Below the pieces are notes generated by a model that searched no databases, had not been told where the DNA came from, and saw only the letters and a program-made list of their open reading frames with translations. Source: Escherichia coli (GTDB taxonomy: Bacteria > Pseudomonadota > Gammaproteobacteria > Enterobacterales > Enterobacteriaceae). Taken from it: a stretch of DNA of 64,000 nucleotides. Positions within the stretch are counted from its first letter, which is position 1. The number at the start of each line of letters is the position of its first letter. Location of the stretch: assembly GCF_003334815.1 (NCBI RefSeq), contig NZ_QOWO01000005.1, one strand, 5' to 3'. This document shows, piece after piece, positions 16,205-16,490 of this stretch. A program made the translations under genes and the position numbers.

Positions 16205-16490
16205 TTGCGGATGCGCTGCTTTAGGGTGGCGCATTTGGCATCGACGCATGACTGCCGGATGCGGCGTAAACGCCTTATCCGGCCTACGGTTCAGGCACAG
16301 GTTTGTAGGCCTGATAAGACGCGTAAGCGTCGCATCAGGCAATGGTGCTCGGATGCCGGATGCGGCGTAAACGCCTTATCCGGCCTACGGTTCAGGCACA
16401 AGTTTGTAGGCCTGATAAGACGGGTAAGCGTCGCATCAGGCAATGGTGCTCGGATGCCGGATGCGGCGTGAACGCCTTATCCGGCCTACG
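16205..16490. repeat. BIME cluster: three tandem REP-containing units with 101-bp period
   Basis: gccggatgcggcgtaaacgccttatccggcctac recurs starting 16254, 16355, 16456, with inverted-orientation REP (ggcctgataagacg.gtaagcgtcgcatcaggc) between copies. Confidence 0.9.

Follow-up and report, generated by a model that had tools for sequence, protein, structure and literature searches.

In K-12-like Escherichia coli DNA the genes copA and ybaQ converge on a gap of 315 nt, most of which is filled by a palindromic sequence repeated at a regular interval. The locus raises the questions of what this sequence is, whether it encodes anything, and what it might do for the genes on either side. They are addressed here in the window, the whole stretch of 64,000 nt that was analysed. 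The window aligns with positions 461071-525070 of the K-12 MG1655 chromosome on the reverse strand at 99.97% identity; all 64,000 bases align without a gap, and 18 of them differ. A window position is converted to an MG1655 position by subtracting it from 525071. None of the 18 mismatches falls in the array, and the copA-ybaQ intergenic sequence is that of MG1655. Both genes are annotated in K-12 and in all other examined RefSeq genomes that have them.

REP and BIME elements were first recognised some 40 years ago. The element between copA and ybaQ is a textbook BIME-2 that published K-12 data sets already record as a REP/BIME interval, and its value as a discovery is small, this being an ordinary element already annotated in E. 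coli K-12. Taken as a whole, it is highly likely that the array is a non-coding BIME-2 of Y and Z2 REPs rather than a CRISPR, that its alleles form a length series in 101-bp steps, that it would serve as a 3'-end barrier, and that it is a weak site for gyrase.

Anatomy of the array

Tandem Repeats Finder places a repeat of period 101 at 16253-16490, with 2.4 copies, 97% matches, no indels and a score of 455, and a repeat search on the window finds three in-register copies at spacings of 101 and 101. A sequence-only reading of the same DNA had described a BIME of alternating inverted REPs downstream of copA, present as a three-copy tandem with a 101-bp period over 16205-16490. The BIME, the period and the downstream end stand. 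The three full copies do not, the array consisting of two full Y-Z2 units and a terminal Y, and its start moves to 16253/16254, where the periodicity begins; the preceding 16205-16252 comprises a REP-like hairpin of its own, together with a partial unit that has degenerated.

Searched with a regular expression built on the classical REP consensus, the gap contains five REPs: three of Y type on the + strand, exactly where the earlier reading had placed its REP motif (16254, 16355 and 16456), and two of Z2 type inverted between them. The order is Y-S-Z2-linker, twice, followed by a terminal Y (Table 1). The Y-type REPs read GCCGGATGCGGCGT[A/G]AACGCCTTATCCGGCCTAC on the + strand, and the Z-type REPs read GCCTGATGCGACGCTTAC[G/C]CGTCTTATCAGGCCTAC on the - strand. 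All five are imperfect palindromes of 34-36 nt, each with a CTAC end and internal stem mismatches, and all are extragenic. The REP tail motif CTTATCMGGCCTAC, with at most one mismatch allowed, has nine occurrences in the 64-kb window, for which shuffles give an expectation of 0.01. Five of these nine occurrences lie in the array, and the motif is also found at two further intergenic sites of the window. When the locus is used as a 901-nt BLAST query it matches 14-62 places per E. coli genome, which fits the REP as a genome-wide repeat.

The REP-like hairpin on the copA side lies outside this periodicity. As RNA it folds at -18.6 kcal/mol (z -3.05), and it is kept in two REP-less alleles (L004 and L007) as GCGGATGCGC..GCGCATCCG, with a better stem.

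Table 1. Features of the copA-ybaQ region, in window coordinates
Feature	Position	Strand	Details
copA, Cu+ exporting P-type ATPase	13692..16196	+	834-aa ORF; RefSeq; K-12 b0484, 508875..511379; stop TAA 16194-16196
ORF, 88 aa	16205..16471	+	ORF track; TTG start
REP-like imperfect hairpin	16206..16240	+	GCGGATGCGC...GCGCATTTGGC
Y-type REP no. 1	16254..16287	+	GCCGGATGCGGCGTAAACGCCTTATCCGGCCTAC; hairpin -21.3 kcal/mol
S-type tail-to-tail linker 1	16288..16304		17 nt; GGTTCAGGCACAGGTTT; published ciprofloxacin gyrase site ~16299
ORF, 50 aa	16291..16443	-	GenBank, several E. coli assemblies; 'mtlD protein', an evident misnomer
Z2-type REP no. 1	16305..16340	-	GCCTGATGCGACGCTTACGCGTCTTATCAGGCCTAC on - strand; hairpin -21.4 to -21.9 kcal/mol; matches naRNA4 Z2 hairpin
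Y-linker-Z2 unit, Rfam RF02564 naRNA4	16308..16385	-	89.3 bits; gathering score 59.5
Head-to-head linker 1	16341..16354		ATGGTGCTCGGAT plus the T preceding the next REP; aligns to naRNA4 model linker
ORF, 134 aa	16342..16746	+	ORF track; runs antisense through ybaQ
Y-type REP no. 2	16355..16388	+	published ciprofloxacin gyrase site ~16368, at hairpin loop
S-type tail-to-tail linker 2	16389..16405		GGTTCAGGCACAAGTTT; one G-to-A relative to linker 1
Z2-type REP no. 2	16406..16441	-	C-to-G change, one stem pair lost; non-canonical pair in Rfam alignment
Second Y-linker-Z2 unit, Rfam RF02564 naRNA4	16409..16486	-	79.9 bits; gathering score 59.5
Head-to-head linker 2	16442..16455		from sequence
Y-type REP no. 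3, terminal	16456..16489	+	loop GTGAAC variant
ybaQ, HigA-family antitoxin / XRE regulator	16512..16853	-	RefSeq; K-12 b0483, 508218..508559; stop codon 16512-16514

A palindromic repeat at regular spacing, overlain by ORFs of 88 and 134 aa, could be taken for a CRISPR-like array or for a pair of genes. CRISPR arrays do share short palindromic repeats at regular spacing, but they have unique spacers and cas genes. In the copA-ybaQ array the inter-repeat interval is itself repeated: the two intervals enclosed by successive Y repeats, of 67 nt each, agree with each other at 97% identity, each contains an inverted REP, and no cas gene is found among the annotated genes of the colinear K-12 region. 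A CRISPR array was rejected on these grounds, as the sequence-only reading had also argued. The same reading had flagged the 88-aa and 134-aa frames as pseudo-ORFs with near-identical peptides, and here too it was right. Both ORFs are present, they share a peptide with a single R/G difference, and both are unannotated in all 12 RefSeq genomes consulted (K-12 MG1655 and 11 others). A collection of 15 billion proteins contains neither product as an exact sequence. As 101 is not a multiple of 3, the reading frame moves by two bases with every unit, and from one allele to another the ORFs are altered or lost. The array encodes no protein and the ORF-track entries are artefacts; that it is CRISPR-like, or that its ORFs are real genes, has next to no chance of being true. 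One use of the analysis is that two ORF-track entries can be marked as artefacts and the CRISPR-like periodicity is explained. The 'mtlD protein' entries, for their part, show that REP-derived pseudo-ORFs leak into protein databases.

Assignment to the BIME-2 class

Two classes of BIME are distinguished in E. coli. In BIME-1, a single-copy element, Z1 and Y REPs are joined by the long, conserved L linker, in which an IHF site is frequent, while BIME-2 combines Z2 and Y REPs with a short S linker in tandem copies whose number varies between strains (PMC3333891). The Y members of the copA-ybaQ array read GCCGGATG...ATCCGGCCTAC. At 36 nt, the Z members agree in length and, bar one loop base, in sequence with the Z2 hairpin of the Rfam naRNA4 model, the source of which is the 'Y-l-Z2' repeats of REP325 (PMC4550694). 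The tail-to-tail linker of the array measures 17 nt, against 35 nt in the window's own BIME-1, an element at 35015-35112 between mscK and ybaM in which a shorter Z1 (35015-35043) is joined to a Y. The array is present in 2.4 tandem copies, and the copy number varies among strains. The IHF consensus WATCAANNNNTTR, with at most one mismatch allowed, has no match in 16197-16511; the linker of the BIME-1 contains a one-mismatch site, ATTCAATATATTG, at 35054-35066. Neither Z1 identity of the Z members nor an IHF site in a linker, the two observations that would overturn a BIME-2 assignment, was seen. On the length and sequence of its Z2 members, its 17-nt linker, its tandem copies and its lack of an IHF consensus, the array is by sequence a BIME-2.

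The opposite assignment, in which the array would be a BIME-1 or RIP element that recruits IHF, starts from the IHF binding documented for the L linker of BIME-1 (PMC3333891). BIME-1, RIP and RIB elements likewise contain two inverted REPs at gene 3' ends. However, the array pairs Y with Z2 instead of Z1, its linker falls well short of ~35 nt, it is tandemly repeated, and it has no match to the consensus that the true BIME-1 of the window does have. An IHF-recruiting BIME-1 is thus extremely improbable here. The sequence-only reading had stated that BIMEs bind IHF and gyrase. Of this, the gyrase part holds weakly, through two published ciprofloxacin sites, and the IHF part does not carry over, being a feature of BIME-1 with no consensus match at this locus. 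A further use of the analysis is that it corrects this common conflation of BIME-1 (IHF) with BIME-2 (gyrase).

Among characterised arrays, the closest relatives are the BIME-2 elements at sucB-sucC, tldD-yhdP and REP325 (yjdM-yjdN), which are likewise built of tandem repeats in which Y and Z2 REPs alternate and a short linker joins their tails. Like the known E. coli BIME-2 elements, the copA-ybaQ array is extragenic, lies at gene 3' ends, has a strain-variable copy number and has reported gyrase cleavage, and it does not differ from them in kind. The differences are of setting and degree: REP325 lies inside an operon and has 12 REPs, whereas the copA-ybaQ array lies between convergent genes and has five, and the gyrase signal at tldD-yhdP is far stronger. 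There is also some likeness to REPIN/RAYT systems. E. coli encodes TnpA-REP, a REP-associated tyrosine transposase (PMC3333891), and the tail-to-tail Y-Z2 pair of the array can fold as a single long hairpin (-52.5 kcal/mol). The window does not contain the transposase gene, however, and the array grows by whole tandem 101-bp units rather than by the dispersal of single doublets.

Copy number among E. coli strains

The sequence-only reading had held that BIME copy number varies between strains and had suggested comparing this locus across E. coli genomes. The comparison bears the claim out, with between 0 and 15 REPs at the locus. A BLAST search of 5,426 complete E. coli genomes was made with the 901-nt locus query, and from its ranking 60 records were taken at even steps. 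Spans in these 60 records were 643 bp (no REP), 699 bp (one Y), 800 bp (one unit) and 901 bp (two units). A synthetic ten-unit query, used next, ranked the largest alleles first and returned further spans of 1002, 1204, 1305-1308 and 1404-1406 bp, equivalent to three, five, six and seven units; its ranking is confounded in genomes with few or no REPs here, where other BIME loci outrank the copA-ybaQ locus. Across the sampled records from the 5,426 genomes, the REP counts at the locus were 0, 1, 3, 5, 7, 11, 13 and 15.

Alleles with 0, 1, 3, 5, 7 and 15 REPs were confirmed by inspecting their sequence. The window and K-12 have five. Among the fetched loci, L002 has three, L003 has one, and L006 (strain XH993) has seven; L004, from the Nissle derivative SYNB1934, has none, retains ybaQ and contains a higB pseudogene. 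The 15 REPs of ET350 (L013) were checked base by base and form seven perfect 101-bp units plus a terminal Y in an intergenic region of 820 nt. BL21 has three units. In three other loci (L005, L007 and L010) ybaQ is deleted, and in L008 and L009 (strain 042) copA is followed by ~330 nt of unrelated, GC-rich sequence.

The shares of these alleles are rough estimates from systematic rank samples of a clinically biased collection, not a census. On this basis, ~22% of genomes have ybaQ but no REP, ~22% have a single Y REP, ~22-24% have one unit (three REPs) and ~17% have the K-12 state of two units (five REPs). Three or four units occur in ~2-3% of genomes and five or more in ~1-1.5%, and variants lacking ybaQ make up ~13%. 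REPs are absent from the locus in about one third of the sampled genomes. Three strains of the sample could be recognised as B2, namely SYNB1934, 536 and M-17, and all have the REP-less, ybaQ-positive allele. Since these strains and the rest of that third do without any REP here, the array is dispensable.

The BIME-bearing alleles share common flanks and differ in length by exact multiples of 101 bp, the sole exception being 3 bp in the 1308-bp span of H112. In the seven-REP allele, the duplicated unit has the variant bases of unit 1. Such an exact-unit length series would be the pattern expected of in-register unequal recombination or replication slippage between direct repeats, and the exact steps together with the unit-1 bases in the duplicated unit suggest that one of these processes was at work. 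Alternatively, the series may stem from TnpA-REP-mediated amplification, which Ton-Hoang et al. proposed for BIMEs (PMC3333891). REP-less and REP-bearing alleles are not related by a clean insertion: where the former have ~20 nt to connect the conserved hairpin with the ybaQ stop codon, the latter have ~76 nt in their place. Between its convergent genes the locus offers a clean natural series of alleles, which rise from 0 to 15 hairpins in steps of 101 bp.

Local role of the array

Each REP of the array forms an RNA hairpin of about -21 kcal/mol on either strand, and the 331-nt region as a whole folds far better than shuffled sequence (z -7.8 for the + strand, -6.9 for the - strand). No site resembling an intrinsic terminator (a hairpin followed by a T run) was found on either strand of 16197-16511. 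Because the gap lacks such a site, the copA and ybaQ transcripts would be expected to end by something other than a canonical intrinsic terminator.

What is known of other REPs suggests a candidate. Works cited in PMC3333891 and PMC12306157 are quoted there as reporting that REP hairpins block 3'-to-5' exonucleases and attenuate transcription. A recent preprint gives REP325 two roles, as a terminator that depends partly on Rho and as a stabiliser of the upstream mRNA (bioRxiv 10.64898/2026.03.23.713779). The same study finds higher expression for the two members of convergent pairs with a REP between them, and places ~40% of the REPs between convergent genes within previously identified bidirectional terminators. 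Genome-wide, it reports that REP-bearing genes do not have longer half-lives and that the effects depend on context. copA appears in its supplement only in a differential-expression table. Our literature search found no paper naming copA, ybaQ and 'intergenic' together.

From these precedents the following scheme can be proposed. The REPs would be non-autonomous elements recognised by TnpA-REP (RAYT), as the family literature has it. The array would be transcribed as the 3' UTR of copA on the + strand or of ybaQ on the - strand, and each REP would fold at about -21 kcal/mol. The folded REPs would block 3'-to-5' exonucleases and would partly stop RNA polymerase, so that the array would form a bidirectional 3'-end barrier and attenuator in a gap without a canonical intrinsic terminator. 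As DNA, it would also be a weak gyrase cleavage site, probably a minor role. By analogy with the exonuclease block at other REPs, with REP325 as terminator and stabiliser, and with the correlations at convergent genes, the array would most likely act on copA and ybaQ as a barrier and attenuator at their 3' ends, in both directions. Three things count against any strong or essential role: the dispensability of the array in about one third of genomes, the lack of a global half-life effect, and the REP-less alleles, which keep just the upstream hairpin.

An effect on translation termination is a separate matter. Liang, Rudd and Deutscher reportedly described in 2015 that a REP within ~15 nt of a stop codon affects translation termination. 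The canonical REPs of the array keep a greater distance from both stops: the first starts 57 nt past that of copA, and the last ends 22 nt short of that of ybaQ. Unlike these, the REP-like hairpin starts 10 nt past the copA stop.

The chief rival to the barrier is that the array is selfish or neutral repetitive DNA, which expands and contracts with no selected local function, any effects of its RNA hairpins being incidental. The presence or absence of the array among strains, its range of 0 to 15 REPs and the commonness of REP-less alleles all speak for this, as do copA and ybaQ, which are intact in alleles with and without the array. Against it stand the correlation of REPs with higher expression at convergent genes, the ~40% located in bidirectional terminators (bioRxiv 10.64898/2026.03.23.713779) and the lack of any other terminator-like site in the gap. 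The two accounts are compatible on the origin of the array and differ solely on whether a local effect has been selected; we regard the neutral one as a possibility of some substance, though the less probable of the two.

A main role at the DNA level has also to be considered, in which the array would be a strong gyrase site or topological insulator absorbing positive supercoils between the convergent genes. Its position is suitable, and a subset of the BIME-2 elements is enriched in gyrase cleavage sites, most of which fall in Y REPs and in loops (PMC6379681). Table DS3 of that study lists 'BIMEs2 507807-508042, length 235' with two ciprofloxacin sites. Its coordinates are offset by 776 nt from MG1655 version 3, a mapping that was inferred and is uncertain by a few bases; by its length and this constant offset, the interval is window 16253-16488. 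The listed neighbours 489184-489281 and 500669-500752 fall on the window's other two BIMEs with the same 776-nt offset. The two sites, 507927 and 507996, then map to ~16368, in the loop of Y-type REP no. 2, and to ~16299, in S-type linker 1, read mapping within near-identical units being ambiguous in short-read Topo-Seq. Two other gyrase sites, 508673 and 508674, were rejected as sites of the array, for they lie in copA once the offset is applied. The signal is small by the standards of the class. The interval has no sites with rifampicin plus ciprofloxacin, microcin B17 or oxolinic acid, whereas under the four conditions tldD-yhdP has 35/13/3/10 sites and sucB-sucC 6/4/0/5; most 'BIMEs2' intervals in Table DS3 show no cleavage at all (PMC6379681). 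Judged from these published Topo-Seq sites and the inferred offset, the evidence for gyrase cleavage at the array is real but weak, and a main role as a gyrase site is rather improbable.

The remaining alternative concerns the RNA itself. Both Y-linker-Z2 units score above the gathering threshold of Rfam RF02564, naRNA4 (CssrE), on the ybaQ-sense strand (Table 1) and share its two-hairpin architecture. They might accordingly be read as naRNA4-type nucleoid-associated RNAs, which with HU would bridge cruciform DNA and condense the chromosome, as originally proposed for REP325 (PMC4550694). However, the model also matches the + strand of the array at 64.0 and 63.6 bits, again above 59.5, and it exceeds its gathering score at 23547-23624, another REP pair in the window. 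A weak, sub-threshold match of 30.1 bits covers 16206-16284 on the + strand. The head-to-head linker of 13-14 nt resembles the naRNA4 linker, with the better alignment on the strand opposite to that on which the hairpins match best. RF02564 is in effect a model of Y-Z2 REP pairs, and because it matches the opposite strand and another BIME of the window, a match points to sequence family rather than function. The type locus of naRNA4 is a different one, and its nucleoid function is now disputed; the present array is known from its sequence. Deleting or overexpressing REP325 leaves nucleoid volume unchanged, and neither a stable ternary complex nor HU-dependent REP-REP contacts were found (bioRxiv 10.64898/2026.03.23.713779). 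Adhya, senior author of the original naRNA4 paper, is among the authors of this contradicting preprint. A nucleoid-RNA function is unlikely for the naRNA4 matches of the array, and the full bridging and condensation model is very hard to credit here.

The naRNA4 classification of the units had been missed by the sequence-only reading.

For the 3'-end barrier, the allelic series has a further use: it could test the debate over REPs as bidirectional terminators and mRNA stabilisers. A more speculative extension is that REP number, from 0 to 15, acts as a heritable, strain-specific dial that would set both the antisense run-on of copper-induced copA transcription into ybaQ and the stability of the two mRNAs. 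We consider this unlikely. If it were true, copy-number alleles would differ in copper-efflux expression or in the level of YbaQ, an orphan antitoxin or regulator.

B2 is a phylogroup reported to retain the higB-1 toxin. The REP-less allele of the three B2 strains would be consistent with a connection of the array to the condition of this toxin-antitoxin module. At the one such locus inspected, that of SYNB1934, the higB toxin gene is a frameshifted pseudogene.

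REP elements in the window

Two further BIMEs accompany the main array between copA and ybaQ (see table), and all three in the window are flanked by convergent gene pairs. The BIME-1 between mscK and ybaM carries a one-mismatch IHF site within its L linker (35054-35066), and it corresponds to the entry 'BIMEs1 489184-489281', for which no gyrase sites are given (PMC6379681). The REP pair between gsk and ybaL has tails reading CTTATCATGCCTAC and CTTATCTGGCCTAC and scores 74.3 bits against the Rfam naRNA4 model.

Within the main array, the segment 16308-16385 aligns with naRNA4 on both strands: its hairpins find their best alignment on the minus strand while the interhairpin linker aligns better on the plus strand, where it reads AAUGGUGCuCGGAU versus the model consensus AAcGGUGC.CGACU. 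Compared with REP325, the element from which the model was derived, the head-to-head linker may therefore have the opposite orientation with respect to Y and Z2. Such an inversion is possibly what sets the 'l' linker subtype apart from the 'r' subtype.

A 50-aa ORF on the minus strand of the same array (16291-16443) consists of REP sequence only. It bears the name 'mtlD protein' in several E. coli assemblies in GenBank, evidently an annotation artefact, and protein clustering groups it with unrelated long proteins.

Additional BIMEs and known RNA or recoding features in the window
Feature	Position	Strand	Score (bits)	Remarks
CopA(Z), copA frameshift product	13692-13903	+		K-12 annotation; known feature, expected
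ChiX small regulatory RNA (Rfam sroB)	17784-17867	-	82.1	
REP pair, single, head-to-head, slightly degenerate	23544-23627			Between convergent gsk and ybaL
dnaX programmed frameshift element	31651-31715	-	96.8	Known feature, expected
BIME-1 (Z1 REP, 35-nt L linker, Y REP)	35015-35112			Between convergent mscK and ybaM
ffs, 4.5S/SRP RNA gene	48519-48615	-	68.1	Known feature, expected

The hairpin behind copA and the copA-ybaP interval

Directly 3' of the copA stop codon lies a REP-like hairpin (16206-16240), with counterparts at 605-640 in L004, the REP-less locus of a Nissle derivative, and at 1805-1840 in L007, the locus of another E. coli genome. Of ten further strains, seven retain it, the exceptions being L008 and L009 (strain 042); L013 (strain ET350) falls outside this count. 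In the REP-less alleles its stem is a perfect 9 bp (GCGGATGCGC...GCGCATCCG); in K-12 the 3' arm has decayed to GCGCATTTGG. The hairpin may be the remnant of an old REP, or it may be the original 3' hairpin of copA. An exact 13-mer, TTGCGGATGCGCT, which resembles a REP head, occurs both at the start of this hairpin (16205-16217) and 235 nt away in the copA coding sequence (15970-15982), a recurrence that is probably due to chance or codon usage.

Repeats aside, the copA-ybaP interval is a hotspot of variation among the other E. coli loci compared (L004-L010). In the Nissle derivative, ybaQ is accompanied by a frameshifted pseudogene of a RelE/ParE (higB) toxin, and some strains have lost ybaQ by deletion, with 3' remnants left behind. 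Strain 042 and one similar strain carry in its place approximately 330 nt of unrelated GC-rich sequence, which begins right behind a TGA stop of copA. This variation fits the report that phylogroups B2 and F retain higB-1/ybaQ, which D has lost.

ChiX and differences from MG1655

ChiX is annotated at the corresponding position in K-12, between ybaK and ybaP, and its 3' end shares two bases with the ybaP stop. Against MG1655, the window shows 18 single-base differences. Six of them are grouped in a 118-nt stretch of rhsD (1127-1244), a cluster that resembles the outcome of gene conversion between copies of rhs. The remainder comprise 11 other single positions and a G to A change at 16787 in ybaQ, which replaces Leu with Phe and is found in none of the best-matching genomes listed. 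Together, these differences indicate that the window derives from a close relative of K-12 and not from MG1655 itself.
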